A stretch of DNA of 64,000 nucleotides from Eledone cirrhosa (GCA_964016885.1 OZ024743.1:274846001-274910000), one strand, 5' to 3'. Shown: positions 6,443-60,221, counted from the first letter of the stretch. The notes: a model not told the origin generated them from the letters alone. Numbers and translations: made by a program.

Positions 6443-6742
6443 GTGTGTGTGTGTGTGTGTACTCTATAATTGGAACGATACAGAGATTAACATGGTGCCT
6501 GCACTAAAACGGTACGCAAATTCGTTAGGCGTTCTATATTTTTTTTATTTGACATTTAAATCCATTTAATGTAACAATAATAAGAAATATTCATTCGGTC
6601 GGATTAAAGAAAAAATAATCTTTAAATAAACCCGTGCTTCACACTGTATACATATATATATTAGTTTATACTTATATATGTGTGTGTGTGTGTGTGTACG
6701 CATATCCATACAAATATGTACATATGCATACACACACACTCA

Positions 6743-11325: not shown

Positions 11326-12066
11326 TAGCTTTAAGTCCGTTCTAATCGTGCAGAAGTATGATCAAACGTTTAGCCGCCATAATAGTTCCGTCTTTTATCT
11401 TAAATCAATGCAACACTGACTACCATTATCCAGTGTAGACTTCTTTTCTGAGATTGGAGGCATATTTTACTGCTATTTCTAGCACACTGAGTGACCACTC
11501 GTAGGTTCGTAGATGGGATACTGTTAATTTGGGTTTGGGTGTTTAGTAAAATGTCAAGCTACATCACGACGGCAAATTGGCAAAATTGTTAAAATGTTGG
11601 ATAGAATTCTGTTCGATATACGTTTTTGTTCTCTGCATTCTGAGTTCAAATCCCAGCAAAGTCAAATTTGTCTTCCTTCCTATCGATATATAAAGTGCCA
11701 GTTCAATTCGGATCGATTCTTTTTCTATATTTCATTCTTACTTTCTATTTCTATAGGTCTTCTTCTGTGGAAGAAATCAGCTGTATTCACTCCTGGAGAG
11801 AGATTGGCTATACCTGACGATTTTCTCAGAAGCTAAGAGTCCCACCTCTCTCACTTGCCCTCTCCTCCCCCTCTCCCTCTACATTATTCAATGTGTACTT
11901 TTTCTTCTCAAGATATGATTTGGGGGAGAACTGGTTTCTACTTCCAGGAAGTAATATTTACCAGGCAACCAATATATAATAAATACGACTCTGGTACATG
12001 CATGGAGACATCATCAATAAATCATTTTTTTTCCCTATAAATCTACAACACAACATATGCGAATGG

Positions 12067-12187
<121 letters not shown>

Positions 12188-12339
12188 TATGTATATATAT
12201 ATATATATATATTCATATATATATAAGTTGAAAAAAAATGAAAACGAAATTTCATTTCTCACTCTTAGTATGGCACTTACTTAAATGTAAGTATGTATGT
12301 ATACGTACATACATATATGTATACAGACGTACAGTAGCA

Positions 12340-12399
<60 letters not shown>

Positions 12400-12572
12400 C
12401 ATACACATATGCATACAGGTACACATACATATATGCACGCATCAGTTTAGCCGGCGTTTATTATAACGCCGGCCGCTTTGTTCGTTTGTTTGTCAACAAA
12501 GCGAACAGCCTGAATTTATGCAATACGGTGTTAAGGCAACCACGTCACCTTTTTGTTCAACACTGACACAGG

Positions 12573-12617
12573 AACGATGTACTAGTTTCAAGCTTGTTAG
12601 CTATCATCAGCACCGTT
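12573..12617 (-). ncRNA. Type I minimal hammerhead ribozyme (array copy 1)
   Basis: Reverse complement: aacggtg CTGATGA t agct aaca agct t GAAA ctagt a catcgtt. Confidence 0.8.
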
Positions 12618-13054
12618 TACCCATCTGCCAGATAGTTGAACGTTCGAAAGTATATACTTTCCTTATGAAAATTAACGGCTGAGCAGCCTAATTTGCATAT
12701 TGAGTGAGTTAAATCGGTCAGGCATACCGAAAACGATAAGTTGAAAAAAATGAAAACGAAATTTCATTTCTCACTCTTAGTATGGCACTTACTTAAATGT
12801 AAGTATGTATGTATACGTACATACATATATGTATACAGACGTACAGTAGCATGCATATATATATATATATATATACACATACATACACATATGCATACAG
12901 GTACACATACATATATGCACGCATCAGTTTAGCCGGCGTTTATTATAACGCCGGCCGCTTTGTTCGTTTGTTTGTCAACAAAGCGAACAGCCTGAATTTA
13001 TGCCATACGGTGTTAAGGCAACCACGTCACCTTTTTGTTCAACACTGACACAGG

Positions 13055-13099
13055 AACGATGTACAGGTTTCAAGCTTGTTAGCTATCATCAGCACCGTT
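13055..13099 (-). ncRNA. Type I minimal hammerhead ribozyme (array copy 2; stem III palindrome mutated)
   Basis: As the other copies, but gaaacctgta replaces gaaactagta. Confidence 0.7.
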
Positions 13100-13220
13100 T
13101 ACCCATCTGCCAGATAGTTGAACGTTCGAAAGTATATTCTTTCCTTATGAAAATTAACGGCTGAGCAGCCTAATTTGCATATTGAGTGAGTTAAATGTGT
13201 ACCTGTATGCATATGTGTAT

Positions 13221-13261
<41 letters not shown>

Positions 13262-13495
13262 TGCTACTGTACGTCTGTATACATATATGTATGTACGTAT
13301 ACATACATACTTACATTTAAGTAAGTGCCATACTAAGAGTGAGAAATGAAATTTCGTTTTCATTTTTTTCAACTTATCGTTTTCGGTATGCCTGACCGAT
13401 TTAACTCACTCAATATGCAAATTAGGCTGCTCAGCCGTTAATTTTCATAAGGAAAGTATATACTTTCGAACGTTCAACTATCTGGCAGATGGGTA

Positions 13496-13540
13496 AACGG
13501 TGCTGATGATAGCTAACAAGCTTGAAACTAGTACATCGTT
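13496..13540 (+). ncRNA. Type I minimal hammerhead ribozyme (array copy 3)
   Basis: Stem I aacggtg/catcgtt; core CTGATGA 13503-13509; stem II agct-aaca-agct; GAAA 13524-13527; palindromic stem III actagt; predicted cleavage after UA at 13533. Confidence 0.82.
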
Positions 13541-13713
13541 CCTGTGTCAGTGTTGAACAAAAAGGTGACGTGGTTGCCTTAACACCGTATGGCATAAATT
13601 CAGGCTGTTCGCTTTGTTGACAAACAAACGAACAAAGCGGCCGGCGTTATAATAAACGCCGGCTAAACTGATGCGTGCATATATGTATGTGTACCTGTAT
13701 GCATATGTGTATG

Positions 13714-13777
<64 letters not shown>

Positions 13778-14011
13778 TGCTACTGTACGTCTGTATACAT
13801 ATATGTATGTACGTATACATACATACTTACATTTAAGTAAGTGCCATACTAAGAGTGAGAAATGAAATTTCGTTTTCATTTTTTTCAACTTATCGTTTTC
13901 GGTATGCCTGACCGATTTAACTCACTCAATATGCAAATTAGGCTGCTCAGCCGTTAATTTTCATAAGGAAAGTATATACTTTCGAACGTTCAACTATCTG
14001 GCAGATGGGTA

Positions 14012-14056
14012 AACGGTGCTGATGATAGCTAACAAGCTTGAAACTAGTACATCGTT
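14012..14056 (+). ncRNA. Type I minimal hammerhead ribozyme (array copy 4)
   Basis: Identical to 13496-13540. Confidence 0.82.
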
Positions 14057-14229
14057 CCTGTGTCAGTGTTGAACAAAAAGGTGACGTGGTTGCCTTAACA
14101 CCGTATGGCATAAATTCAGGCTGTTCGCTTTGTTGACAAACAAACGAACAAAGCGGCCGGCGTTATAATAAACGCCGGCTAAACTAATGCGTGCATATAT
14201 GTATGTGTACCTGTATGCATATGTGTATG

Positions 14230-14285
<56 letters not shown>

Positions 14286-14519
14286 TGCTACTGTACGTCT
14301 GTATACATATATGTATGTACGTATACATACATACTTACATTTAAGTAAGTGCCATACTAAGAGTGAGAAATGAAAATTCGTTTTCATTTTTTTCAACTTA
14401 TCGTTTTCGGTATGCCTGACCGATTTAACTCACTCAATATGCAAATTAGGCTGCTCAGCCGTTAATTTTCATAAGGAAAGTATATACTTTCGAACGTTCA
14501 ACTATCTGGCAGATGGGTA

Positions 14520-14564
14520 AACGGTGCTGATGATAGCTAACAAGCTTGAAACTAGTACATCGTT
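14520..14564 (+). ncRNA. Type I minimal hammerhead ribozyme (array copy 5)
   Basis: Identical to 13496-13540. Confidence 0.82.
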
Positions 14565-14737
14565 CCTGTGTCAGTGTTGAACAAAAAGGTGACGTGGTTG
14601 CCTTAACACCGTATTGCATAAATTCAGGCTGTTCGCTTTGTTGACAAACAAACGAACAAAGCGGCCGGCGTTATAATAAACGCCGGCTAAACTGATGCGT
14701 GCATATATGTATGTGTACCTGTATGCATATGTGTATG

Positions 14738-14793
<56 letters not shown>

Positions 14794-15023
14794 TGCTACT
14801 GTACGTCTGTATACATATATGTATGTACGTATACATACATACTTACATTTAAGTGCCATACTAAGAGTGAGAAATGAAATTTCGTTTTCATTTTTTTCAA
14901 CTTATCGTTTTCGGTATGCCTGACCGATTTAACTCACTCAATATGCAAATTAGGCTGCTCAGCCGTTAATTTTCATAAGGAAAGTATATACTTTCGAACG
15001 TTCAACTATCTGGCAGATGGGTA

Positions 15024-15068
15024 AACGGTGCTGATGATAGCTAACAAGCTTGAAACTAGTACATCGTT
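15024..15068 (+). ncRNA. Type I minimal hammerhead ribozyme (array copy 6)
   Basis: Identical to 13496-13540. Confidence 0.82.
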
Positions 15069-15241
15069 CCTGTGTCAGTGTTGAACAAAAAGGTGACGTG
15101 GTTGCCTTAACACCGTATTGCATAAATTCAGGCTGTTCGCTTTGTTGACAAACAAACGAACAAAGCGGGCGGCGTTATAATAAACGCCGGCTAAACTGAT
15201 GCGTGCATATATATATGTGTACCTGTATGCATATGTGTATG

Positions 15242-15319
<78 letters not shown>

Positions 15320-15369
15320 TGCTACTGTACGTCTGTATACATATATGTATGTACGTATACATACATACT

Positions 15370-15404
<35 letters not shown>

Positions 15405-15425
15405 ATATATATATATATATATAAA

Positions 15426-15465
<40 letters not shown>

Positions 15466-15496
15466 TATATATATATATTTTATATATATATATATA

Positions 15497-15538
<42 letters not shown>

Positions 15539-15546
15539 TATATATA

Positions 15547-15693
<147 letters not shown>

Positions 15694-15994
15694 CAGATTT
15701 TGTTTCACGTTGTTCTAATTCACTCGGGAAAAAAGATTTGCACCTGTAATTCAAATTTTTGTCACACATTGTACTATGCTGAATCTCCCTGAGAATTACG
15801 TTAAGGTACACGTGCCTGTGGCTTATTTAGCTTCCTACCTCATGGATTATCTGCCTGCTGACTACTGACCTCTGGTTTCAGTCCTCTGAGGCATTTTTAC
15901 CCATTGCTGTTGTTGACAGCATTTGGCAGTTTTTCACAACTCTACTAGTTTTGAGTTTTCTCATTTTTCTATGAATTCATATATATATATATAT

Positions 15995-16037
<43 letters not shown>

Positions 16038-16488
16038 GAGAGAGAGAGAGAGACAGAGAGAGACAGGACCAGATTTAGACCTTTGGTGTCCCTGGGCAGT
16101 ATATATTTATATTTTTATATATTTTTATATTTGTATATCTGTTTGACCCGAATTAGGCGGTCGATTTTTGGCTGTGCGGAGGATTAGTTTAACCACCATC
16201 TCAGTGTGTTTGGCCCTTAACGTAAGTTGTAAGCTCTAATTTATATGAATTATCGAGCGCTTGCCACACAACTCGGAAGTGATTTTGGTTAATTCCTGAG
16301 CTGAAATTCGATTCTCGCTAATTTTTACTTGTACATATATATACATATAGTTACAAGAGTGACATAAAATGGTAATTAAGTTTCGTTGGGTTCTAAAACC
16401 CAACTCATTCAACTTGTCATAAGAAAAGAATAAATAATCTTCTTATTTATATATATATATATATATGTCTGTGTGTGTGTGTATATAC

Positions 16489-16561
<73 letters not shown>

Positions 16562-16565
<4 letters not shown>

Positions 16566-16743
16566 AAAAAGTATGACCCCGACGGCAGAGCTCCAGACGG
16601 GGAGTCCAGAAATAGCCGTCGAAACGGCTTGAGCTCTGCCATCGGGGTCATCATTTTTTCATATTTCCCACTCTACTACTCTAAGTATTGAGTACTCTGG
16701 TGCGTTATGGTCCATCTGGTTCCTTACCACAATTCCTTTGTTA
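16562..16743 (+). mobile_element. Short fold-back repeat family in (TA)n; other copies at 50849-51007 (-) and 55932-56322
   Basis: All copies share cagaaatagccgtcgaaacggcttgagctctgcc(g/a)tcggggtcat and a ~90-nt tail (cccactctactac...ccacaattcctt). Each carries an inverted partial copy. Confidence 0.8.
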
Positions 16744-16965
16744 TATATATATTTGCATTACCATCTTTGTTTGTTTACATGTTCGCTCGTTCCCCCTATT
16801 TACGTGTCCCAACGACTTTCTTTAGCCGTTGCTCGCACCAACCAGAGGTATATGATCTTTAAAGCGATGAAATACCAATGAAGGCTGGAAGATCACTGAT
16901 GAAGGACTAATTTTATTCATATGTAACCCATTTGCAACCACGCAGCACGCCATTTTTTCATATAT

Positions 16966-17010
<45 letters not shown>

Positions 17011-17334
17011 CACGCCTTTCTTGTAAATAACGGAAAACAAAAGTATAATTGTAATTTTGACAAATGACTGCTTAACGTAATGAAATCTCCAGAGATGATT
17101 CTATCTGCTGTGTTTGTCAAATATTGAGATAAGAAGAGAAAATGATGGGACAGCTTCATCTCCCTATTACCAACGTTAAATTAGAAGTGGGCAACAGCAT
17201 TTGTACATGTACACACACACACGTGTGATGTGTTTTTATCTGTGTGCGTATACGTATGTGTGATGTGTGATTTTATGACTAAGTATTCATGTTTACGTTT
17301 TTCAGTATGTGTGCATTCAATGCTTCAGAGCCTT

Positions 17335-20319: not shown

Positions 20320-20371
<52 letters not shown>

Positions 20372-20526
20372 GGAAAAAATGAAACGAAATTTCATTTCCC
20401 ACTCTTAGTACGGCTGTTACTTAAATATAAGTATGTACATGTATATATATACATACATGTGCATGTATGTATATATATATATACATACTACTGTACGTCT
20501 GTATACATATATGTATGTGCGTGTAC

Positions 20527-20557
<31 letters not shown>

Positions 20558-20685
20558 TATGTATGTATGTGTGTATGTATGTACGTACGTAAGTATTTAT
20601 GCATGTATGTATGCATGTATGTATGTTTTTATGTATGTATGCATGTATGTATGTTTTTATGTATGTATGTATGTATGTATGTATG

Positions 20686-22933: not shown

Positions 22934-23148
22934 GAATGCTATGGTTGATGGAGGCTCGGCTCTGTAAGGTATTGTAAATTTTGAACGCTATAACAATTGT
23001 AAATTGTTTAAAACTTTAACCAACTTGTAGACAAAACACCCTCCTCCTCGTGAGAGGGGTCTTTCTGCCCGTTATTTGGCCCTTCGGGGTTAAATAACTG
23101 CTTATTGGGGTTTTGTGCCCAATATTTATTTTAAACAAAAATAACAAC

Positions 23149-25140
23149 ATGGCTACGAAAAAGAATTTTCATAGGTCACTTCCACTCATTCCGTCTTCTT
23201 CTTCCTCAATCGTCACTACAGCAGAGAGAAGATTGTCTCTTTCCCTCCCTTCTTTAAATGTGTCTCTCTCCCTCCCTTCTCTTTCGCAAGCGACGACAGA
23301 AAAGAAAAGTCTCGTGCAAAGCGTGCAAGATTTCTCCACGACGACGACGACAACGACGAAACAGGTGTGCGGGAAATACGAAAACCCATTTCATTCATCT
23401 GACGTCAGGAATAATAGCAGTAGCAGCCGTAATAACAACAGCAACAGTGACAATGAAAACAACAGTAACAGCCGCAACAGCATCAGCATAAACAAGAACA
23501 GCATTAGCAGCAGCAACAACAACAACAACAGCAGCAAAGAAAAACCAATCTCGTTTGCAGGTATCGCGAAGAACCTGGAAACAATCCTCATAACAAATGA
23601 GGAATTAGAGGAAGCGAAGAAGATGGTGACAAAAACTGGACACCGAGCAATCTGCAAGGCAGCGGAAAATTTTTTCGAAACCCAACAGCACTGTACGGTC
23701 ACGTACCGTACAATAAGTACAAAATCCCGTAGGGTTGAAAGAGCCACAGAGGCTCAAATACAAAAGGCCTTGGGGTCTGTGTGGCAGCGGAAAACGCAGA
23801 TCACCCGAGGCAAGAAATATGCCACCGTAGACGTACTTTTTGCCACACCCCAGGAGGCAAAGGCTCAATCCGTAGTGACCCTAAGGAGCGAGGAAATGGT
23901 GTTGGTGCCCTCCTACTGCCCCCCCCCCCCCCCCGGGATGGCCCCTTCTTGGCTGGCCGCGTCTGTCCTCGTCGGAATCGAGGAAAAAACAACTGTACTG
24001 CAAGTACAGAAAAAAGTAAGAAAAGATTGGGTCGGCACCTCCATTGAGATGTTAATCCAAACCAACCAGGAGTGCATCGAAGCTATCCCGGATGTGATAG
24101 ACTTCGATAACGGCACTCAACTGCCCATAAGTGTTGAGGGCAAACGCCCGAAATGCTTTCGCTGTGGATTGAAGACTCACCTCAAGGCCTTCTGCAACGA
24201 GAAGACCCTGAGAAAGGAGAAAACCCCCCACCTTCCGAAACCGGCTCCACGGCTACTAGCAACAGCACAAGCGGCAACCAGGTACGATAGGTCTGTGGCA
24301 CCCATACCCACGCCACGGAAATCAAAAACAGCAGCAGCAGTGGAAGTATTAACAACAACAACAGCAATACCAAATGCAGCTGCAACAGAGACTCCAGTGC
24401 AGACATCACCAACAACAATAAGTGAAAGAGTGGAGTTGGTACCCCTCCCCGACCTCACAGAATCAGACATGGAGTGTGAGGTGGGTGAGGGATGGCAAAA
24501 GGTCGTAAGAAGGCACAAACGCAGAAGCAGCGCATCGTCGCATTTGAAAGGGGAGGAAAGAAATGAAAAAAGGGTAAAGTCTACTGCAAAGAGACTCACA
24601 GCAGCAACACCACCAACACCATCACCACCCACACTAGCACCACCATCACCACCGGCGACAACCCCACCGCCAACAACAACAACACCTTCAACACCACCAC
24701 CACAAGCACCAACATCGCAAACACAACAACAAAACACACACACCCAGCAAAAACGACAAGAAAATAGCAAAACCACACACCACCCCCAGAAAAACAAATG
24801 CACGGCAATAAATACACACAACAAGAAACTAATGACTTACATAATTGAACACACAGACATTTCACAACACGACTACATAATACCAGCACCAATCAAAACG
24901 CCAACTAACATAAGACTGCTAAAAATAGCACAGAAACAATACACAAACATTAAAACGAAATTCCCCAACGCAGTTGGTGATTTCAGAGACCTAGGAGGAA
25001 CTATCGACCGAAGAGTATATTCGGACATACTCATAGAAGAGCCGATGACCAGCCGAAGGGACGATTCAACGGTCCCTTCACCAGACGATCAAGTGAAAAG
25101 GGATGTCAAAACGATCCCTCCGCTACGAAAAGTACGGTAA
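23149..25140 (+). CDS. LINE ORF1 protein (CCHC zinc knuckle, low-complexity linkers)
   Basis: Open frame from ATG 23149 (MATKKNF) to TAA 25140. Zinc knuckle CFRCGLKTHLKAFC preceded by ISVEGKRPK. WQKVVRR motif typical of Tx1/L1 ORF1. Confidence 0.85.
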   Translation: MATKKNFHRSLPLIPSSSSSIVTTAERRLSLSLPSLNVSLSLPSLSQATTEKKSLVQSVQDFSTTTTTTTKQVCGKYENPFHSSDVRNNSSSSRNNNSNSDNENNSNSRNSISINKNSISSSNNNNNSSKEKPISFAGIAKNLETILITNEELEEAKKMVTKTGHRAICKAAENFFETQQHCTVTYRTISTKSRRVERATEAQIQKALGSVWQRKTQITRGKKYATVDVLFATPQEAKAQSVVTLRSEEMVLVPSYCPPPPPGMAPSWLAASVLVGIEEKTTVLQVQKKVRKDWVGTSIEMLIQTNQECIEAIPDVIDFDNGTQLPISVEGKRPKCFRCGLKTHLKAFCNEKTLRKEKTPHLPKPAPRLLATAQAATRYDRSVAPIPTPRKSKTAAAVEVLTTTTAIPNAAATETPVQTSPTTISERVELVPLPDLTESDMECEVGEGWQKVVRRHKRRSSASSHLKGEERNEKRVKSTAKRLTAATPPTPSPPTLAPPSPPATTPPPTTTTPSTPPPQAPTSQTQQQNTHTQQKRQENSKTTHHPQKNKCTAINTHNKKLMTYIIEHTDISQHDYIIPAPIKTPTNIRLLKIAQKQYTNIKTKFPNAVGDFRDLGGTIDRRVYSDILIEEPMTSRRDDSTVPSPDDQVKRDVKTIPPLRKVR

Positions 25141-25175
25141 GTGGTCTTTCCCATCTTTTCCACTCTATTTTAAAC

Positions 25176-28100
25176 ATGACCTCACTCAGAATAGGCAGCA
25201 TAAATGCGCGTGGCTTGGGGTCGTCATGGAAGCAGGGTCACCTGCTCAACGACCTCAGGTCACTAAACATAGATGTAGTGGCCATCAGCGAGACCAGAAT
25301 CTCCGAAGCACGGGCCTTCGCACCGATCTTCGGCGGCTACGATGTGTACGCATCTTCCAGCCGTCCTGGATCGAGGTGAGGAGTTGCTGTGCTTTTTCGG
25401 AGAGGTTTGGATCTCGCCATACGGGCCATCTTCCTGGACCCAGAGGGTAAATTTGATGGTGCTGGACGTGACCAGCGGAGACGGGCAAGCATTCAGGCTA
25501 GTGGCCGTCTATGCCCCGACAGGAGCAGGGCGGCCTGATTTCTTCCGGCGTCTGGAGACCTTTCTTGGAACGTCCCGCTCTTTAGTGTTAGTGGGCGACT
25601 GGAACGGGATCTTAGATGCACGCTGGGACTGTGTGGGATTAGCGGATAGGGGTGGAGGGTGCAAGAGCCTCACCAACCTGCTCAGGCGTTTTGAACTGTC
25701 TGACAGGTACCGATTGGATTTCCCGAATGTGCCAATGTGGACTTGGACAAATCGCATAGGGTCATCCAGATCATATCTAGATAGAGTATTTTGTAGGGAA
25801 ATAGATAGGTCTAGCATAGGCTGTCCACAATTCAAGATAGTCAGCTACACGGACCACAAATTCGTGATCTGTGTGCTTGACTTAGATAGGCTTCATAGAC
25901 GAGGACCCGGCTACTGGAAGCTAAACGCGTCCTTACCAGCGCGTAAGGCCTACAGAGACCGGATTAGCGAACTAGTTAAGCGGGCGTTGACGGGGGCCAT
26001 CGTCAACAACAAGTGGTAGTTTGCTCTGAAAAGAGCGATTAGAATAGAATCCATTAGATTTAGTAAGGCTTTAGCAATAGAGAAAAATAGAGCAGAGGGA
26101 GAACTAGTTAGAAAATTAGACGAGGCGCTTAGCAAAGGCATTGCGACCGACGTGCTTGCGGCGAAATTGGCCCTTGACCAATTCTTCAATGCAAAGCACG
26201 AAGGCTGCGTTGTCAGCGCAAGGGTGCGTGCTCTCAGACACGAGGGGACGAAAGCCGTTCAATGGGCCCGAGTGGCGGAGGCGCGTCGTGGCAACAAAGC
26301 CACGATCCGGTCTTTGGTGGACCACGACGGGCGCATGCTACTCGATCCCGGGCAAATGTGTGAAGCTTTTCAGCGACACTTCGCTCAGCTGTTCGGGGGC
26401 AGCGGTGGGCCGGGTCGAGGGATGGAATTTAGTGTCTACCTCGACGGACTGCCGCGGCTCTCGGCCACTGAGGCGAAGTGTTGCGAAAAGCCGATAACAG
26501 CCGCTGAAGTAATGGAGGCAATGACTGGCTGCACAAGGGGTAAATCGCCTGGTTTGGATGGTCTGCCCTATGAACTTTACGTACAGATGCCAGACTTGTT
26601 CGGAGGCCTCTTGGCGGACGTCTACTGCAACTGGCAACAGAACGGGAGAATTCCCAGTTCTGTGAGCCGAGGAGCGGTGGCACTGCTGAGAAAGGATCCG
26701 AACAAGGGGGATAACATAGATAATTTCCGGCCCATATCTCTGCTAAACACAGAGTTCAAGATTTTGGCCAAGGTGCTAGCAAAGAGGTTGGCGCTTGTCG
26801 TTGGTGGTCTGGTGGGAGAGGCGCAGACATGCGCCATTCCCGACAGATCCATCCACGACAACCTCCACCTCATGCGATACATCGTAGAAAGGGTAGCTAG
26901 GGAAACTGGCACTGGTGGGTCCTTGATCAATTTAGATCAGTCGAAAGCTTTCGATAGGGTCGACCATCGTTACCTGGCGGCAGTCCTGATGGCGGCTGGC
27001 TTTGGGCCCGTCTTCAGAGGCTGGATCGCTGCCATGCACAGCGGCATCTGCTCTGTGGTGAGAGTGAATGGTCACCTGTCGGAACCGTTCAACTTCATGC
27101 GCTCGGTCAGCCAAGGATGTCCCCTCTCGTCCCTCTTGTACGTATTGACTCTCGAGCCATTACTGCACAAACTGGAGACGTTGAGGGGCGTCCCGCGCGA
27201 ACTAGGATGTGGAAGATCCGTGTCAGCATATGCGGACGATGTCACCGTAGTGGTGTCGAACGCCAAAAACATCGAGGCGATCGGCACTACACTAAGAGAA
27301 TACGAAGCGGTGACAGGAGCAATGATCAACCAGGAAAAGTCAGTGAGCCTGCAGCTCAGCACCTGGAGAGGCAGGTCCATGCCGTCCAACAGCGTCGTCG
27401 GACGCTGGACGGACGGACCGGTTAAATTGCTAGGGGTCTGGTTCGGTCCGGACCTCCAGACGGACAAAAACTGGGACGAGGTGACGACCAGGGTGGCTTC
27501 TCTCACCCAGAAATGGGCGGAGAGGAAGCTATCCCTGAAAGGTCGAGCTGAGGTGGCTAACGCGTACATCGCGTCTGTCATCTGCTACCGCCTGACCGTC
27601 GTACCTTGTCCTAAGCCTCGCCTGACTGCGCTGGAGCGTTTGCTCTTTCGCTTTTTGTGGAAGGGACGCGCTCCGATGGTCAGGCGGTCCATCTGTTGTC
27701 AACACCCGCTACGTGGAGGGCTGGGCATGCCGTGGCTGATGATGCGCAGGCACGCGCTCAGGCTACGACATCTCCACCTCTTCCTCGACGGTGATCAGGT
27801 GTGGTCGCCGTTTGCTAGACACGTATTTCCCCAGGTCGTTTCCTTGACGGAGCTGCAGTCCTAGGTCAAGCGAAGACCGAGAGGGAGCGCCTGGAGACTG
27901 GAATGTCTTCAGGGGCTCACAGCCCTCGACCAATCGGGCAATGTGATCGGTGGAAACTCCACCTCGGCGTTCTATAGAGGATTAGTGGAGGGGAAGAGCG
28001 ACGACGTACTTGGGGAAACTCTAGGCGTCGACGAAAATCAACTAGCCAATCTCTTCGGAAGAACTTTCGGGCCAGGGCCTATGGACAACTTCCAGAAATC

Positions 28101-28596
28101 TCTGGCCTGGCAGTGCTACCGAGGAGCCTTGCCAGTTCGGGATAAACTCTACAGGCATGGAGGTGCCGTCAGCCGGGCATGTCCGAGATGCGCGCAGGGC
28201 GACGAAACCGTCCTGCACGCACTCGTCCAGTGTCCGAAAATTGCTGACTTGTGGGTTTATGTCGAACACCTGCTGTCGCGTTTAGGACGGATCCGGCTAT
28301 CATCTGAGTCCATCGTGAGGATTGCCCCGCCCTCCTCCTTTAGCCGGGAAGGGCAGGCAGTTTTTATCTGTCTGGTGGCCATGGCGAAAGAGATGGTATG
28401 GTGGACACGTTTGAAAGGGCTGAAGACGAGCACTTACCTCTTCGGTGATGCTCTGATTGACTTTTTCAAATTTCATTTGAAAAGGAAAATCAGAGTAGAG
28501 AGGGAAGTGCTCTCTTCCCAGCATTTTGTTGAAAGATGGGTGAGAGAAGCAAGAATGGCCCGAGTGAATGGGCCTACTCTGAGTATATATCTGTAA
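25176..28596 (+). pseudogene. LINE ORF2 (APE endonuclease - RT - C-terminal Cys/His domain), disrupted
   Basis: APE motifs SINARGL, AISET, AVYAP, GDWN, YLDR, TDH. RT motifs PGLDGLP, FRPISLLN, DQSKAFDRV, QGCPLS, YADD. C-terminal CPRC...ETVLHALVQC. One frameshift near 25375 and in-frame TAG at 26017 and 27862. Confidence 0.92.
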
Positions 28597-28857
28597 ATTA
28601 AAGGTGGAAAACTGGGAGATGGCACTTGCCTTGGTGGTCAGGGTCATTGTGGCCTTTTACTGGGCTTTCTCCACAAATGTCCCTCCGAAGTCTCCCCCCT
28701 ATTGGGGAATTTTTCATTGTTATTTTCATTGTTATTTTTGTTACATCCTCTGTTTTTGTTTTTTTTACACGCAGAAATGCCCATTTGTACCGTCCTGCAT
28801 TGTCCTGCACTGTCCTTAATGTCTACTTTATGTAAACCCTTGTGGTTAATAAAGAAA

Positions 28858-28904
<47 letters not shown>

Positions 28905-28949
28905 GTTACTATTATTATTACGTTTTTTTAATTTTTTTTTTCCTAATTC

Positions 28950-31900
28950 AATGATGTTCCAAAACAATATAAAAGAGATAATTGGCAATAAAGGTTCTGG
29001 AACAAAAAAGATAATTGGCAATAAAGGCAGGGGCCCCAGAGTATCACAGGCTGGGCCCGCTCGTCATCGTGGCACTGTAATAGAGCCAAACAAGGCATTT
29101 AGTCTTGGCTGCTGGAACGTACGGACGCTGCTTCACAGGGATTCCTTGGAGCGTCCTGAACAAAGGACCGCTCTTGTGGCAAAGGAGCTTCGACGTTACG
29201 ATCTTGACATCGTGGATTTATCTGAGACGAGGTTAGCTGGAGATGGTCATCTTACGGAATTTTGTGGAGAATATACATTCTTCTGGAAAGGAAGAGATGA
29301 AGGAACCAGAAGAGAGGCTGGGGTAGGATTTGCTGTTAAGACTGTTCTTATGAATAAATTAGAATTACCAGTGGGGATTAGTGAGCGTCTTATGTCCACG
29401 AGAATTCCGCTGGACAAAGGACGATATGCGACCCTGGTGAGTGTGTATGCTCCAACTATGAATTCTGTAGATGAAGAAAAAGTGTCCTTTTACCATGCCT
29501 TGAAAGGTGTTTTAAGAAATATCCCTCAGGCAGATAAAGTCATCGTGCTTAGTGACTTTAATGCTAGAGTGGGTAGGGATTTTAACACATGGAATGTATT
29601 CGGAAGGCATGGGGTGGGAAAGTGTAACAACAATGGTATGCTCCTGCTGCAGATGTGTGAGGAGCTGGATCTGTGTGTTACCAACACCATGTTCCAACAA
29701 AAGAACAAATTCAAGACCACATGGATGCATGCTGCATCTAAGGAATTGCATCTTTTGGACTACGTCCTAGTCAGGATGCGTGACAGACAGGATGTGCAGT
29801 GTGTTCGTGCTCTTCGTGGAGCTGAGTGCTGGACGAAACTCCCGCCTGGTACGCGCAAAAGTAAAACTAATCACTCAACGTAAAATCCGGGCTCCTGGTG
29901 TTGCCCTGCCCAGAAGATTTAATGCTGCTCGTCTTAAGGATAAAAATGTGAAGAAGACATTGCAAGAAGAGATGCAGGTTGCCGATGTTGGTGAGGATTG
30001 GCCGACCCTTAAAAAGTCGGTTTATGATGTAGGCTGGCGTGTTCTGGGATTGGTGCAGAGAAAACATCAGGACTGGTTTAATGAGAATGATATATATATA
30101 GAAGACTTGTTGGCTGATAAGAGACGTGTTCTGTCACGCTACTTGACGGCAAAACAATAGGAGAAGAATACGTTGCATAAGGAACTCAAGTGTTAGGCGG
30201 AGTCTTTCTCAGATGAAGGATCAGTGGTGGAGTGAGAAGGCTGATGAGATACAAACTGCGTCAGATTCCAATAACACAAAGCTGTTGTACAGTCTCTTGC
30301 GTGAAGTTTATGGACCGTCTTCTCTGGTGACACCGCTTCGCCGCAAGGATGGCAAAGAATTTCTTCGTGACTCCCAAGGAATTCTACGAAGGTGGCGAGA
30401 GCACTTTGATGATCTTTTGAATCAGCCGTCTGTCGTAAATGAAGATTTCCTCAATCTCATTCCAGAAAGTCCTGTGAAAGTAACTCTCGCAGAACCTCCG
30501 ACGCTTGTGGGGGTTGCAGTGGCTATCTCGAAGCTGAACAGTGGAAGGTCTCCAGGTATGGATGGCATACATGCTGAACTCCTACAATATGGTAGTGAGA
30601 GACTCCTGCAACACTCTTTGTTTGGCAGGATATGGGCTAATGAATCCGTAATGATGGTCTTGTACAAGGGAAAGGGTAACAGGAATGATTGTGGGAACTA
30701 CAGAGGTATATCATTGCTTTCTGTCGTAGGGAAAGTTTTATGTAGGGTGCTTCAGGACCGTCTGCTGACACACATTGCAGATTGTGTTCTTCCTCAAAGT
30801 CAATCTGATTTTCGTGCTGGACGCGGCACTACTGATTTGATCTTCTCAGCTAGATAGTTCCAGGAGAAGTGCATGGAACAAGGTTTGGATCTGTATCAGG
30901 CTTTTGTCGATCTGACAAAAGCTTTTGATACTGTTAACAGAAATGCATTATGGAAAGTTCTCCAGAAACTTGGTTGCCCTGATAAGTTCCTTGCTTTAGT
31001 TAGGTCTTTCCATGACGACATGAAGGCTTGGGTTAATGTCGGAGGTAACATGTCGGAGCCTATCTCAGTAAAAAATGGGGTGAGACAGGCGGATATTCCA
31101 GCACCGACCCTTTTTGCCATATACTTTGCAATGGCATTCTGTATTGCATTCACGAATTGCGAGCATGGTGTTTACATTCGATATCGAACCACAGGCAGCA
31201 TATTTAACACCAGGCGCTTTCTGCAAAAACAAAAGTATTTACATCAATAAGAGACCTCTTGCATGCAGATGATTGCGATCTTGTAGCGCACACAGAGAGT
31301 GATATGCAGCATATTTTGAATGCATTTTCTGATGCTTGCACTGTCCTAGGATTGACTGGCAGTCTCAAGAAAACCGTCGTCATGTACCAACCTGCTCCTG
31401 GTAAGCAGTACAGTGAACCAAATACCTATGTGTATGGTAAACGACTTGAAGTGGTTGATCAGTTTGTCTACCTGGGAAGCACAATCAATCGATACAGCAA
31501 CCTTGATAATGAAATCTCACTTAGGATTAGGAAAGCAAGTGATGCTTTCGGAAAGCTAAAAAGGCGACTCTGGGGTCGGCGAGACATATGCAAGAAGACA
31601 AAGGTAAAGGTGTACAAGGCATGTGTGCTCTGTTCTCTTCTTTATGCCTGCGAGACCTGGGTCACATATCGACACCACCTTAAGCAATTGGAGCGTTTCC
31701 ATCAGATGTGTCTCAGACGGATCCATGGCGTTCACTGGAGGGACCACATCAGTGATGTCGAGATTTTGGAAAGCTCTATGTGTGACAGTATAGAAGCTCC
31801 TGTACGTAAGCAACGACTACGTTGGAGTGGTCACCTTGCCAGGATGAAGGATTCTAGAATACCAAAACAACTCTTTTATGGAGAGTTAGTTAAATGAAAA

Positions 31901-32450
31901 CGACCTCCACATAAACTAAAAAAGAGGTATAAGGATTCCTTGAAAGCCTCTTTGAAAGACGCTAACATCTCTGCTGATACATGGGAAAATGTTGCTGCTG
32001 ATCGTAATAAATGGAGAAATACTGTGTATGAGGGGAAAGTTGCCTTTGAGGCATCTCGAATCGCATACGAGAAAGTAAAGCGGGGTGTGAGGAAGGGCAT
32101 TGCTGTTGCATTTCCAGACAGCGAAGGTCCTCATATGGTGCTGACATGCAGCGTCTGTACGAGACTCTGCCTAAGCAAAGCTGGACTCGAAAGTCATCTT
32201 CGCAGTCATAAAGTGAGACCAGTGGTTGACTACTAGGCTGCTGTTGGAGATGCTACTCATCATGCTTGCCAAACATGTGGTAGAGAATGTAAATCAGCAG
32301 GAGGGCTCAAACGACATACAAAAGTACATGAAGTTCAACCACAGCCGGCTATTCCCAGCGAATGTTTTGGTTGCCAACTCTATGCAAGACATTTTAGATC
32401 ATTGGCTGGGCTAAAAAGCCACATTCGATCGCAGCACTGTTAATTGCTAT
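28950..32450 (+). mobile_element. RTE-clade LINE (single ORF: APE-RT-3x C2H2), decayed
   Basis: WNVRTLL...RTALVAKEL...LSETRL...YTFFWKG...GVGFA, VSVYAPT, DFNARVG, NYRGISLL, FVDLTKAFD, ADD, YLGS, LLYACETW, LRWSGH. Several stops and frameshifts. C2H2 fingers at 32147-32443. Confidence 0.92.
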
Positions 32451-32487
32451 CGTGTGTGTGTGTGTGTGGATATGTTTATGTGTGTGC

Positions 32488-32628
<141 letters not shown>

Positions 32629-32640
32629 TATATATATATC

Positions 32641-34249
32641 CAGGGCGGGCAAAATTCCCGAGATCAATGGATGAGTTCTCTCCAGCGGTCTCTGTCCCTC
32701 ATTATCCTGCGTCTCCAACAGACCAGTGTCTGTCCTTAGGGCATCAACATACGTTAACCTTGGTCTTCCTCTTCCAGTGTGTCCATGTAGGGGCTCCCAC
32801 AGGAGCACTGAGTGCAATGTCAACTCTGGATGTCGGTGAGCACGCCCAGCTAACCTCAGTCACCTCTGTGTCACTTTTGAGCTGACTTTTGGGAGGCTCC
32901 CATACATCTCTGATTTTTTCATCCTCAGTGTATACTGATTAATGTTCAGAGCCATCCTCAGCATTCTCGTGTAGCACCCATCCACCACCTGAGTGAGTTT
33001 CTTGGTTAGTGTCAAAGTCTCAGACCCGTACAGCAGCACAGACTCCACTACAGCAATGAAGAGGCGGATTTTCAGGTCTTTACGAAGGTCCGACTTCCAC
33101 ACCGATCTCAAGCTATGGCCCGCCGCCCAGGCTTTGCTCTTCCTCTCAACCACATCATCTTCTGTATTCCCAATCTTTGCTCCCACATACAGGAAGCCCT
33201 CAACCAATTCTAGCGGCTTCCCGCCGACATTAGTGATCCCCTCTGGCTTCTCAACATTCTCTACCAGATACTTTGTTTTAGTCTCATTCATTCTCAGCCC
33301 CACACTTATCGACACAGTCTCAACCTCCTGCATCAAATCCTCTGCCTCCTTCACTGTATTTGTCACCAAAACTATGTCGTCGGCAAATTCAGCAACTGAT
33401 ACCCTTTTCGCCTTAACTATCCTGCTCTGAGCCGGTGCTACAGTAAAGAAGAGTCCTGGTGTTTCTCCAGTGCAAGGCGCATAGGAAGAGAATAGGAAGA
33501 GGAAATGGCTAAACCATTTTAGGACCCTACTAAGAGAGCCACCCTTCACAGCCCAGAGCACTGGGGAGATCAGGCGGCTGTTTGAGGAACTGGATATTGA
33601 GACAGAGCCCTTAACCAGAGAGGAGCTTCAGAGAGCCAAGAAAAGGATCAAGGAGAAGATGGAGTGGCATCAGAGGTGATGAAGAGGTGTGATTTTTATA
33701 TCATCCTGGGGTTCTGTAACCAGGCACTGGAGAAAGGAGTTGCCCCGAATCAGTGGAGGATCAGTAACATCGTCCCAGTGCAAAAGAAGGGAGATCTCTC
33801 TAACACCAACAACTACAGGGGGGGGGCGGTCTCACTGACGTCACTTGTGGCAAAGACCCTCAACAGGATGATTCTTAACAGGATCCAGCCTGAGATGGAG
33901 AAGAAGCTCAGGGACAACCAGAACGGCTTCAGAGAGGGAAGATCAACCACCAGTCACATCCTGATGCTGAGGAGGATATTAGAGGGAGCTAAAACAAAGT
34001 GCCTTCCTGCGGTCAGGGTTTTCATTGACTTTAGGAAGGCCTTTGATTCTGTGGACCGTCGTTGCCCGATGAAGATCTTACAGGCTTATAGAATCCCCAA
34101 GAAGATAGTGGACCTGATATCACTGCTCTACACCAACACCAAAGCCCAAGTCATTACACCTGATGGGATGACAGAGTTCTTTGAGATACTGGCTGGAGTG
34201 CTCCAGGGAGATACATTGGCTCCCTACCTTTTTATCATCGTAGTAGACT

Positions 34250-34253: not shown

Positions 34254-34300
<47 letters not shown>

Positions 34301-35385
34301 ATAATAATAAAATTGAAGACTAAAACCCAAAGAGGGCTCGATAAGGAAAATATATATCAAATATATAAGAACCGTAGAGCTAATATTTATTAAAATAACA
34401 GATTAAAGTTTAAGCAAAGAATCGCTGCTTTCACCCTTAACGGGATCTTCTGAAACTAACAAAGTCAATCTGTAAACGCAGAACTGGATATTTCAAAAAA
34501 CGTTGCAACCGGAGGAAGACAGGAAGACGATACTTTGGTTCGTGGTAACGTTCGCTGGCAAAGAACGGGAAAAAACGAATAATACGTCATTAATAGGAGC
34601 GGTGAAAAACAATTACGCGCAAAGACAAAACCACGTTTATGGTATAAAAGAGGTCGTAGACTAATGTTCTCTTAGGTGGTGCATAGAGACGTTCTCTGGC
34701 AATGAACGAAAAAACGAAGATAATAAGTCATATGTGGAGCGTGGAGAACAATAGCACGCAAAGACAAAACCACGTAAATGGTATAGCAGAAATCGTAGAC
34801 TAAAATTCTAACTAGGAGACCAAATGAATCTCCGCTACAGAGTTAAGAACAAAGTAAATAAATACAATACAGAAGTAATAGGAACAAATAAATACATACA
34901 CGCAAACAGATACGTACATACACAAGCATACGCAAAACCTTACCATGGGTATACAAAACCACGCACATATAAATATGTGTGTGTGTGTATGCTTGTGTAC
35001 AAATAAATAAATAATTATATAAACGTATATAAGTAAATAAATACGTATATAACAAGCGCACACGCATACCTACATATAAATACACGAATGTTCGGAGACG
35101 TAAGTCAACTAAAACAAGAAGTACACATATACACACACCCACCATACGTACGAACCTGCAGACTCACGCGGACGCAAAACTCCCGTATACACATAGCCAA
35201 ACCCTAAATACCAGAATATGTAAAAATTATACGCTATAACAGTCAAATATACGTACGAGAAGATATACATACCTTCACAAAACATACGGGTAATATATAC
35301 TTACCTATGCAAATACGTAAAGGAATAAACAAAACATATACTTAGCTCCCACATCAAGACGTAAAATATCCACGTATAGATCGTG

Positions 35386-37181
35386 CTATCCGTTAAGGTA
35401 TAACGTGGGGCTGTAATACAGGAGTGTTTTGTGCAATTTATGTTTACAAGCCGAAATTGCCTCAGATTTTTTGTTTAAGATGTGGTCTGTAGCGTAGAGT
35501 ATTTCCAGGGCCTCAGCGGCGCAGAGGTCACATGGTCTTTTATTTCCGTTATACGATTGAGCCCTAGCTAGGATCTCCCAGTGTAACTTATATTGGGTGT
35601 GGTTGTCTTTTAGACTCCAGATATAAGCTGAAAGTGACGTCATATTCCTTCTTAGAGGGTAACGAAAAGAATGGGTATGCATGTAAAGACGCTGCTTGAA
35701 ACTATTGGCGGTTAACTCTATGTAGGCCCTACGGGACGTGGGTGTTACAACCTTACATTTGTAGACAATGTTACTAGAGAGGCATTTCCCGGATAGGGGG
35801 CAATCAGCCCGATTCCTACAATTACAGTTAGTACTACCTACAGGGTTGCACGTGTTCCTACGGCTAGGTAGTTTAGCTAAATTTGAAGCTGTGATGTTAT
35901 GTGCAAGGTTAGGAGTCGTAGAGTAAGAAATTTTAATAGTATTTCTATTAAAAATTTTACTATATGTGTAGGGGGAAAATGCTTCGTAATAAGGGAAAGA
36001 AAGATCTTAGCTAATGGTGTGGCCACCTCCATATTATATGGTGGGTTAAACCAACAAATGCGACGGGATCTATTTCTTCTAGGTCTATTTTCGTACACTG
36101 TATATGCTACCTTATCGACAAATCCACTTCGAGCAAGAGCTTCATTGTAATAAGTGGAATGGTCGTTGAAAATGCGCTCGTTGGTGGAAAGACGGGAAAG
36201 CCTCAACGAAACGTTTCTTACCAGGTTCTTGGTTATGCTGGCAGGATGGTTGGAATGCTTACTTATGTAATTAAGCGTATCATTCGGCTTTCTATACGGG
36301 TAATACAACCCATTCAATAAATTGAGGGTAACGTCGAGGTAATTAACGACCGAGAGATTGGCCTCAACCTGTATAGAGAGGTTGAAGCCTTTAAAGAAGG
36401 CTGTGAGTTCTTTTCTGAACCTGTCGCAAGCACGAGGTCCGCACTTAGTCATGGTCAAAAGACCATCGTCACGGTACAAACCACCGCCCGCGTTGGGGAA
36501 TTCGTCCTTGATAGAGAAAAGAAGGAAAAGGCCAATAAGATCAGTAACCTCCGCAGAGTCACTGGCGCCCATACTCACGTCGAATGGGGTACTATTGGAT
36601 TTTTTAATCCAAATAGAGTCGTCGAAATTAATCACCGACTTTCGGGCATTAAGGATGACATCAACTTCAAAATCCTTAACCACTGTGAGTGTTTTAGCGA
36701 AATTGATAGCTCTAAGGAGAAGTGGTAAAGTGATGGAGGAGTAGTAATTGTTGATGTCGAATTGGATAAAACGGCAATCTTCCTTGTTACATATGCCGTT
36801 GAACCAATCAATCACCGCGAAAGAATTGTTCCACAGTGCGAGAGGGGCCAAACTTCTAATTTCAGGTATAATTCTATCAAGAATCGTTTTACTAAGTCTA
36901 CCTAAATCGGACTTCGTAGGGTTAATAAGCCGAATAGAGGGGTTGTTCGGAAAATTGGATTTGTGATCCTTCAGGGTAAAGTGGGGAGAGATAGGGTCCA
37001 GAGGTTCGGTCCGGTCCAGGATGTTGAAATCAGATGTGATTTTAAACCCAGCATCGTTGATTTCATTGATGACGCACCGATTAGTTTTACGGTAATCCTT
37101 AGTTACAGCATTATGTAGTAGTTGATGGTAAGTACTGCGCTCCACTTGATATAGGTTGCCAGTTTTGTCGGAATGGACGTC
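35386..37181 (-). pseudogene. PLE reverse transcriptase + GIY-YIG endonuclease (Naiad-like motif set); one frameshift, N-terminus missing
   Basis: SDKTGN, TLKDHK, RLINP, FDINNYYSSI, FDVSMG, GLYRDDGL, YLDVTL, YRKPN, SNHP, WFNPP. After a frameshift near 35965: CNC...CPLSGKCLSSNIVY...YIELT...FKQR...H...SLSAYIW...CDLC..E...LNKKSE...CKH. Confidence 0.9.
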
Positions 37182-37547
37182 TTGGTCTCCTAGTTAGAAT
37201 TTTAGTCTACGATTTCTGCTATACCATTAACGTGGTTTTGTCTTTGCGTGCTATTGTTCTCCACGCTCCACATATGACTTATTATCTTCGTTTTTTCGTT
37301 CATTGCCAGAGAACGTCTCTATGCACCACCTAAGAGAACATTAGTCTACGACCTCTTTTATACCATAAACGTGGTTTTGTCTTTGCGCGTAATTGTTTTT
37401 CACCGCTCCTATTAATGACGTATTATTCGTTTTTTCCCGTTCTTTGCCAGCGAACGTTACCACGAACCAAAGTATCGTCTTCCTGTCTTCCTCCGGTTGT
37501 AACGTTTTTTGAAATATCCAGTTCTGCGTTTACAGATTGACTTTGTT

Positions 37548-37598
37548 AGTTTCAGAAGATCCCGTTAAGGGTGAAAGCAGCGATTCTTTGCTTAAACT
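37548..37598 (+). ncRNA. Hammerhead-like motif with variant core (CAGAAGA) in the PLE terminal repeat; mirror copy at ~34407-34457 (-)
   Basis: agttt CAGAAGA tccc gttaa gggt GAAA gca gcgattctt tgc TT aaact. All three stems pair; followed by aataaa. Confidence 0.55.
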
Positions 37599-37614
37599 TT
37601 AATCTGTTATTTTA

Positions 37615-37653
<39 letters not shown>

Positions 37654-48437: not shown

Positions 48438-50102
48438 GGGGTGAGTTCTATTGTACCACAATAAAGCAATGCAAATATCGGAAAAGTAGCACTCAACAGT
48501 TTATAGAACTGGAGGTTAAATAATATAAAATCAAAAGATGGTTAATAATACTGGGTCACTTGCTAATAACTCTGGTAATTACTCTAATCGTATTTGCAAT
48601 TGCCCTATTAGAACTAAGTGTCCTCTTAGTAACCAATGTCTTGATAAAAATGTAGTGTATGAATGTAAGGTTATAACTGGTACTAATTCTTTTACCTACT
48701 TTGGTTCCACTTCTACTTCCTTTAAGGCAAGATTTTATAATCACAATTCTTCTTTTGATACCCACTTAAAACAACTAACACAGCACTGTTAGAATTCATA
48801 TGGTCCTTAAAGGACAAAAATATTAACTCCAACATTTCTTGGAGAAAGGTTTGCAATGCCTCTCCTCACCTTAATTCTTCCTTATACAGAACATGTAATC
48901 TCTGCCTAGCGGAGAAATTTACCATTATCTCTAATTTTAATTCTATAATAAATAGACGTACGGATTTATTTTCGCTCTGCTTCCATAAATCCCATAGAAC
49001 TTTCCATAAAGTATGCAGCTAATATCTTACTACCTAATTAGTTTAAAATCTTTTTCTCAGACACTTTTATATTTTTTACAAATATACCCATCTTTCTACC
49101 TTATTTCAGTATATTATACAATATTACTCATACTATGTCGTTAGCGGTCCCCTAATTTTTCTTCTTTTTTTAATTTATAATCTTTAATGTGCAACTTTTA
49201 CTTCCCAGTTACTTCTTAATTCATCTTATTACTCACTATAGCATTTTCCTTATATTCTCGGCCATACAAATTTTTATTTTTAATATATACTAATATTACC
49301 ATTAGAGAAATTTTGTAAACATATTTTTTTGACGTTATATATTTTTTCTTCCTTGAATTTTTTCTTTCTTCTCTCTTTCCATGCTCGTATTAACTCTATT
49401 ATTTACTTTGTCCTATTACAATATATAGAAACAAACTCGGACCCTAATTAATTCCTCTAAGTTCATAATTCATTTAACCTTATCTTCATTCACCTTATCT
49501 TCTTAATTTATTTTATTTTAATAATACATTTTAATAAAGTCCTTTTCGCACATCTTATTAAACCCTTCAATATATAAACCTTAAATAAATAGTATTCTTA
49601 ATTCCTTTTTCTTTAATCATAAGCATCACCATTCATAAACCTCATTAACTTTTAATTTCTTAATTTTTTTAAATCATGTATTATCTTCCAACGGTTTTTT
49701 TTCTCTGTGAGACAGTGTTTCTCAGTATTAAAGGTTATCTCTCTCTCTCTCTCTCTCTCTCACTCATTTTCTCCTCCTCTCTCATCCTTCCTTCTTATAC
49801 TCCTCCTCCGTCATCCTTTCCTTATTTTTTTTTTTTTCTTCTATCTATATTTTTTCTTCCTCTTCCTTACCTTTTCTTTCCCCGTTCCTTTCCTTTTTTC
49901 CAATCTCATATATCCCTCTAATTTTATTTTTCATATGTTGATTTGACACTTCACTGCTCGCAAGTGTTTTTTAAGCTTCATATCATATCTCCCTATTTTA
50001 TCTGATGAGAACGCAAATATCATCCTATGGTGATATTTGTTTTTGAAATGCGCATAATAAAATACATGGAACTCTTTTAACCATCTTTTGATTTTATATT
50101 TT
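48437..50102 (+). mobile_element. 5'-truncated PLE (GIY-YIG end + long 3'UTR + HHR) with an inverted terminal piece
   Basis: CNCPIRTKCPLSNQCLDKNVVYECKV...TYFGSTSTSFKARFYNH; after a frameshift FIWSLK...CNLCLAEK...NRRTDLFSLCFH. 48521-48544 is the reverse complement of 50077-50100. Confidence 0.85.
49994..50064 (+). ncRNA. Type I hammerhead ribozyme in the PLE 3' repeat
   Basis: tattttat CTGATGA gaacgcaaatatca tcctatgg tgatatttgttttt GAAA tgcgca TA ataaaata. 8-bp stem I; palindromic stem III atgcgcat. Confidence 0.78.
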
Positions 50103-50133
50103 ATATATATATTAGGGCACATATATAATATAC

Positions 50134-50850: not shown

Positions 50851-51118
50851 CGAAGGAATTGTGGTAAGGAACGGGGATGGACCATAATGCACAAAAGTAC
50901 TCAATACTTAGTGTAGTAGAGTGGGTAATAAGAACAAGTATGACCCCGACGGCAGAGCTCAAGCCGTTTCGACGGCTATTTCTGCCGTCGGGGTCATACT
51001 TGCTCATATATATATATAATAGAATAATCGAGTATCGGAAAAACACCTCACGAATTAACGATAAACAATATCCGATATGAGTGGCAGAGGGCTCAATAAT
51101 TTGGATAAATCAGAGCTA

Positions 51119-60184: not shown

Positions 60185-60218
<34 letters not shown>

Positions 60219-60221
<3 letters not shown>

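Follow-up and report, generated by a model that had tools for sequence, protein, structure and literature searches.

The window analysed here is a 64-kb stretch (C4:274846001-274910000) of the 3.0-Gb Eledone cirrhosa assembly. It contains a hammerhead-bearing array whose left end lies at ~12223 and whose right end lies at 15374. The first-pass annotation had located this array correctly but set its bounds slightly too far inward, at 12226..15371. It had also described a six-copy array of ~500-nt units; six hammerheads are indeed present, but they do not amount to six tandem copies. The array is real, and it is a single insertion composed of two opposed arms that are joined 5'-to-5' (Table 1). 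Both outer arm ends enter (TA)n.

Positions within the unit are numbered from q1, the base directly after the predicted hammerhead cut, and are counted along the 516-nt unit at 13534-14049. Only four monomers are complete from cut to cut (482, 516, 508 and 504 nt), the remaining units being partial. Excluding the internal (TA)n, which varies from 10 to 34 repeats among the units of the window, the complete units differ from one another by 0-3 bases per ~460, and the GC content of the unit is 0.30-0.35. Local microsatellite duplications account for the odd units. Array growth by self-targeting into the internal (TA)n was considered and rejected, the number of nested junctions being zero.

In agreement with the annotation, no credible ORF was found in the unit: when the unit is tripled, the longest frames that begin with ATG encode 64 aa (+) and 110 aa (-), and both run through the (TA)n. 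The hammerhead repeat lacks the ORF for a reverse transcriptase (RT) and GIY-YIG endonuclease that would identify an autonomous Penelope-like element. An LTR pair with a 4-bp target duplication is likewise absent, the ends of the insertion being 5'-truncated arms embedded in (TA)n.

Table 1. Features of the two-armed insertion, in window coordinates; cuts and targets are predicted from the sequence.
Feature	Position	Strand	Description
Left flanking (TA)n	12087..12222		Putative target
Left arm	12223..13196	-	q382-516, one complete monomer (13061-12580) and q1-360; two hammerheads
Left arm 3' end	q360	-	'Long' end
'Tail', ~60 nt (q300-360)	12223..12283	-	Left end only; Penelope-type sign of two internal RT start sites
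Hammerhead	12573..12617	-	Core start 12610; predicted cut between 12580 and 12579
Hammerhead, altered stem III	13055..13099	-	Core start 13092; two changes at 13092-13062 break the palindrome
Inversion junction	13195..13196		5'-truncated ends of both arms joined 5'-to-5', overlapping by 2 nt
Right arm	13195..15374	+	q~154-516, three complete monomers and q1-299; four hammerheads
Extended stem I rod around hammerhead	13472..13558	+	One per unit
Minimal type I hammerhead	13496..13540	+	Core start 13503; stem I of 7 bp; core CUGAUGA...GAAA; predicted cut after 13533 (GUA)
Right arm complete monomers	13534-14049, 14050-14557, 14558-15061	+	
Internal (TA)n of one unit	13720..13774	+	
Hammerhead	14012..14056	+	Core start 14019; predicted cut after 14049
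Hammerhead	14520..14564	+	Core start 14527; predicted cut after 14557
Hammerhead	15024..15068	+	Core start 15031; predicted cut after 15061
Right arm 3' end	q299	+	'Short' end
Right flanking (TA)n	15375..15655		Putative target

Hammerhead motif and predicted fold

A motif descriptor of our own recovered six type I hammerhead motifs within the insertion, of which four lie on + and the other two on -. The Rfam model, in contrast, gave no hammerhead match at the gathering score anywhere in the window, and there was none among the 150 of 206 weak matches listed for 12000-17200. The features listed in the annotation were confirmed. A type I hammerhead is present in every unit; the palindrome ACTAGT across the 2-bp stem III is intact in five of the six copies; a GUA stands at the place of the cut that the annotation had predicted from the motif; and the hairpins that it listed were found both in the sequence and in the predicted fold. 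Stem II consists of 4 bp beneath a U.U, its closing pair being U.U and not G-C.

A 2-bp stem III together with U.U at the base of stem II also occurs in axolotl HHR_Amex2, and the available text of PMC7229834 describes the axolotl retrozyme with this U.U as active and as cleaving in dimeric form. The minimal motif of the repeat has the same architecture as the dimer-type hammerheads in the accessible part of PMC4209133. For frog retrozyme dimers, one published test of which a part is available had 1 of 9 cleaved in vitro.

The stem III palindrome is predicted to form a 6-bp duplex between two copies at -6.8 kcal/mol, a value reduced to -1.6 kcal/mol for the altered copy at 13092. Folded as a circle, the monomer is predicted to be highly self-paired (71%), with the start of the core pairing with stem III bases at a probability of 0.78-0.98. 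In such a fold, self-cutting of the circle would be prevented. Without the microsatellite, the unit folds with a z of -6.8 on the sense strand and -4.1 on the antisense strand. Across 63 pairs in 27 copies, 97.9% of cells were paired and six pairs had changed on both sides, as compared with 35-42% for slid controls. Because the 27 copies, hand-picked across subfamilies, are mutually related, this conservation supports the predicted pairing and does not prove it.

Genomic copies, arm ends and targets

Searching the assembly with the 31-nt hammerhead core gave 10,718 exact matches, and the reversed control gave 0. The 3' segment of the unit gave 15,337 matches. Forty scored hits, spread over 8 contigs, all showed 100% identity across 311 nt. 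Given the core count against that of its control, together with the near-identity of the window's units, the array is not a chance occurrence. Copies are dispersed as monomers and multimers.

The ends of the arms were called at 82 loci, comprising 53 from the first 100 core matches, 28 more from the first 100 3'-segment matches, and the window. These loci hold 127 called arms, of which 55 end at q289-306, 64 at q347-362 and 8 elsewhere, such that 119 of the 127 arms end at one of two fixed internal sites ~60 nt apart. Among the 35 inverted pairs, 32 combine a short with a long end, one is short+short, none is long+long and two have an odd end; the pairing of short with long in 32 of 33 corresponds to a p of 4e-9. 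At 105 of the 119 typical ends, (TA)3 lies within 16 nt. Inversion, a tail and a preference for (TA)n are known from Penelope-like elements in the available part of PMC8557442, and the tail has been attributed to reverse transcription starting at two internal sites (PMC11167929, in part). The copy number, the two fixed 3' ends, the two-arm build and the (TA)n targets all bear out the earlier proposal of a dispersed, non-autonomous element mobilised by Penelope-like machinery.

The same observations dispose of the notion of a local satellite duplication or assembly error containing a chance hammerhead-like string. The long (TA)n that flank and interrupt the array would suit such an origin, as would the lack of an Rfam hammerhead match. 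It is refuted, however, by thousands of dispersed copies with fixed ends, and both the pairing conserved across subfamilies and the strand-specific A-to-G scars described below speak against it; we give it virtually no credence.

The 3' segment, and not the hammerhead, served to choose 46 loci. Of their 70 arms, 45 run across the predicted cut, with 66 crossings in total; 27 arms are longer than 520 nt, and no arm stops closer than about 4 nt past the cut. Since arms run through the cut and none stops at it, the template was continuous at this point; it may have been circular, a ligated multimer or a transcript left uncut. A cut linear monomer as the only template was rejected, as arms do not end at the cut; a seamless jump between cut monomers is indistinguishable from ligated RNA.

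The distribution of variants among units bears on when the multimers arose. In 41 short multi-unit loci (131 units), 89 variants were fixed in all covering units (71 shared, 18 private) and 184 were singletons, with only 16 common to a subset of units. For this count two long arrays were left out and the indel-rich q74-135 and q340-360 were skipped; a few of the fetched stretches contain two insertions. The mean distance in these loci was 0.016 within arms, 0.020 between arms and 0.038 between loci. By these counts, most multimers arose with the insertion. Growth at the DNA level nevertheless exists, since a 45-unit array on C4 is organised in higher-order repeats. On C3 (12272004-12323206), an array of the hammerhead repeat extends over at least 51 kb, with many units carrying one stem II A-to-G change; this array is a satellite born from the retrozyme.

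Several smaller observations concern the unit and its junctions. As a candidate promoter element, an octamer-like sequence, ATGCAAAT, was considered; 57 of 63 loci retain it intact, and by eye it is conserved no better than the bases around it. Newt satellite 2 has an snRNA-type promoter. At 20340-20560 of the window lies an old, 76%-identical fragment of the repeat's tail region, adjoining (TA)n. Next to the insertion junctions at three loci (L060, L034 and L095) lie fold-back inverted duplications of neighbouring DNA, perhaps a by-product of arm joining.

A-to-G changes and the template of reverse transcription

At locus L095, 13 of 18 rare changes are A-to-G on the hammerhead strand. ADAR makes A-to-G clusters and avoids a 5' G. 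Unselected loci are without strand bias: of 46,067 calls at invariant positions, 85 were A-to-G and 74 T-to-C. Patterns demanding one or two A-to-G changes gave 3, 3, 0, 90 and 84 genome matches. By eye, a further A-to-G in 33 nt was counted in 35 of the 84 matches with one required A-to-G, whereas the T-to-C mirror control had 1 of 21. The rows are not independent, since edited loci had been selected by pattern and some of the A-to-G pairs in the older subfamily are inherited; the pattern for A also offers more free positions. Forty loci were then taken from the 90- and 84-match lists, favouring those with multiple hits and multiple changes. L120 and L121 look like a single locus taken twice, and L122 and L123 repeat L095. 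Inheritance could account for the concordant changes at L126, L151 and L152, which were left out of the evidence.

Locus L125 (C2) is a single arm with eight cuts spaced exactly 474 nt, in which two monomers, X and Y, alternate exactly four times. X and Y differ at 14 sites, all of them A/G. The four X copies are identical bar one base, and the three full Y copies show no differences at all; the arm opens and closes with partial units, of 330 and 318 nt respectively, that are also Y and agree at all five X-versus-Y sites in their overlap. Sixteen sites have G where unedited relatives have A, eleven of these following U and none following G, and there is only one other change in 3.9 kb. The simplest reading of this pattern is that L125 records about four turns of reverse transcription round an ADAR-edited dimer circle of 948 nt.

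A period of one unit is seen elsewhere. At L127, five A-to-G changes, one of them in the catalytic core, are repeated in two successive units and are found only at this locus; at L138, A-to-G changes are likewise repeated between units. Both fit monomer circles, and each taken alone could be a local DNA duplication. At L119 the two arms mostly differ in their A-to-G sets, with 11 changes private to one arm, 4-5 private to the other and 2 shared, indicating arms copied from different RNA segments. Successive units differ in their changes at L146, L133 and L143. Differences of these two kinds suggest that some insertions came from multimers, which could be linear; such patterns would be expected from dimer circles or from linear multimers. 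The window itself provides a related case. A G58T variant occurs in exactly three copies in the whole assembly, all within the window's array (one in the left arm's outer unit and one in each of the right arm's two outer units), and no source array for it is present in the assembly. A single monomer circle does not explain its presence on both arms, which needs either inter-arm conversion or a mixed multimer template.

It could be argued that the same element was inserted by the same Penelope-like enzyme from a template that was always linear, uncut read-through RNA, with the hammerhead a passenger and the units multiplied in DNA after insertion. Mixed multimer templates would fit L119, L146, L133, L143 and G58T, the C4 higher-order repeats show that units do multiply in DNA, and hammerhead cleavage was dispensable for insertion of the anole element (PMC11167929, available text). 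However, amplification in DNA of a linear Y-X-Y' should leave the first and last Y of L125 different, and independent editing would bring about their agreement at all five sites with a chance roughly estimated at ~0.1-3%. The near-absence of other changes along the same arm, and the fixed, singleton and subset counts that date most multimers to insertion, further count against a linear template throughout, and we regard it as unlikely.

We consider it probable that the arms are instead fossils of rolling-circle reverse transcription, in which ADAR-edited monomer and dimer ribozyme circles were copied for several rounds by a Penelope-like enzyme, primed at two fixed internal sites from the two ends of one DNA break, and in which the scars serve as barcodes of the template. 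The circular RNA template put forward in the first-pass annotation thus finds support at the level of the family in the in-phase A-to-G scars of L125, L127 and L138, with dimer circles or other multimers also serving. RNA edits would thereby have been written back into an animal germ-line genome.

The opposed arms, the two 3' ends, the (TA)n flanks, the arms that run through the cut and over more than one unit, and the A-to-G changes with a period of one or two units together make it likely that the repeat is a non-LTR retrozyme, i.e. a non-autonomous Penelope-like element, copies of whose circular RNA are written into (TA)n by a Penelope-like RT. Under this model, arrays would be transcribed on the hammerhead strand and the paired minimal hammerheads would cut the multimers incompletely, whereupon a host ligase would close monomers and dimers into circles and ADAR would edit part of the RNAs. 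The endonuclease of an autonomous Penelope-like element would nick (TA)n on both strands, and two cDNAs, one starting at q299 and the other at q360, would be primed from the two sides of a single break. Each cDNA would end at random, with the two 5' ends subsequently joined; very long arrays would grow further at the DNA level. Exact predictions follow for the cut site, the two priming sites, the (TA)n target, and the monomer and dimer circles. In an RNA run, 0 reads fell on the unit; the count was also 0 for one of the window's high-copy elements, which makes the first zero uninformative. Runs carrying the label of another organism yielded low-depth pieces only.

Candidate partner and known systems

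A Hydra-clade Penelope-like element with DKT and CxCX5C motifs lies at ~34300-37650 (-) of the window, and the fetched loci contain at least four families of the Hydra type, plus two further Penelope-like ones. Pfam returned nothing for the Hydra-type proteins and only a weak RVT_1 for two others. At three loci the unit is fused directly to Hydra-type coding sequence; these fusions could be nested insertions with target loss. At L044 and L047 the hammerhead repeat and a Hydra-type arm supply complementary short and long ends. Our best guess at the most likely partner, and a weak one, is a member of the Hydra clade that targets (TA)n.

Were the repeats solo pseudo-LTRs left by 5' truncation of an autonomous Penelope-like element, rather than an element of their own, fusions to coding sequence might be read in that light. 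The three fusions, however, occur at three unit positions and involve two families. In the 34 single-arm junctions listed, the upstream sequence is another unit, an opposed arm or unrelated DNA; the unit has no likeness to the 3' regions of the ~six Penelope-like families sampled from the fetched loci; and arms contain up to 45 head-to-tail units. A pseudo-LTR origin is thus highly improbable.

The window's Hydra-clade element itself has two arms, a tail and a (TA)n build like those of the hammerhead repeat, and carries a hammerhead-like motif with an altered second core base and a U.U under stem II. Copies of it at 97-99% amino-acid identity are present in four fetched loci (L033, L034, L035 and L039).

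As regards known systems, the repeat resembles metazoan non-LTR retrozymes as described in the available parts of PMC7229834, 10.64898/2026.07.22.740005 and PMC7761336: it is non-coding, low in GC and highly paired, and its tandem units all bear a type I hammerhead. The retrozymes of coral, mussel, axolotl and newt also resemble it in having thousands of dispersed copies with Penelope-like elements alongside. The first-pass annotation held the unit to be long for an animal retrozyme, which was not borne out, the reported range being 51-972 bp (10.64898/2026.07.22.740005, available text). Circles were shown for the coral, mussel and axolotl retrozymes, whereas the Eledone repeat is known from genome sequence alone. 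The life cycle of animal retrozymes, with rolling-circle reverse transcription and a Penelope-like helper, is presented as proposed and not demonstrated in what is available of the three papers. These same portions describe neither opposed arms, fixed internal 3' ends and genomic evidence of a circular template, nor a genome of the cephalopod type. The present data supply evidence for two of the hypothesised steps, namely the circle as template and the Penelope-like enzyme as helper. We found no report of the two arm ends or of phase-locked editing scars in the open-access literature, and the supplements of the cited papers could hold cephalopod examples.

Hydra-clade Penelope-like elements and non-autonomous forms such as MRC1, as far as the available parts of PMC8557442, PMC11167929 and PMC4209133 describe them, resemble the repeat in having an inverted 5'-truncated copy, a tail at one end, two starts, (TA)n targets and a minimal hammerhead. 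Their tail is 30-40 nt, compared with ~60 nt in the repeat, which differs further in having no ORF and in repeating the whole unit head to tail. The present findings bear on two questions about Penelope-like insertions: why they are tandem and inverted in structure, which is unexplained, and what purpose their hammerheads serve. Neurospora VS RNA is copied by a helper reverse transcriptase. With its Varkud helper, this ribozyme RNA likewise cycles through an oligomeric transcript, a cut monomer and a DNA stage (PMC6765202, in part); it is, however, a mitochondrial plasmid with a VS ribozyme, whereas the repeat is nuclear with target-primed insertion.

Other elements with related features are present in the fetched loci and the window. 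A second hammerhead repeat family (L034:6440-9000), with eight motifs, is built of apparently identical 310-nt units and also shows two arms and a ~34-nt tail. In the window, 60200-61050 is an inverted pseudo-LTR-like pair, each piece with a type I hammerhead (60395-60423, -; 60861-60889, +), that resembles the 3' end of a Penelope-like family at L067 and L080. At 49940-50130 a second Hydra-type family is represented by its hammerhead and 3' end, which match L047. A third Hydra-type family (L054, L084) has left short inverted 3'-end relics at 16565-16750 and 50880-51010, in which the hammerhead-like core is atypical. The window further contains another hammerhead-like motif at 6260-6237 (-), a U6 snRNA pseudogene at 6443-6543 (+; Rfam, 54 bits), and, over 23098-33600, pieces of several LINE-type retrotransposons with frameshifts or stops.
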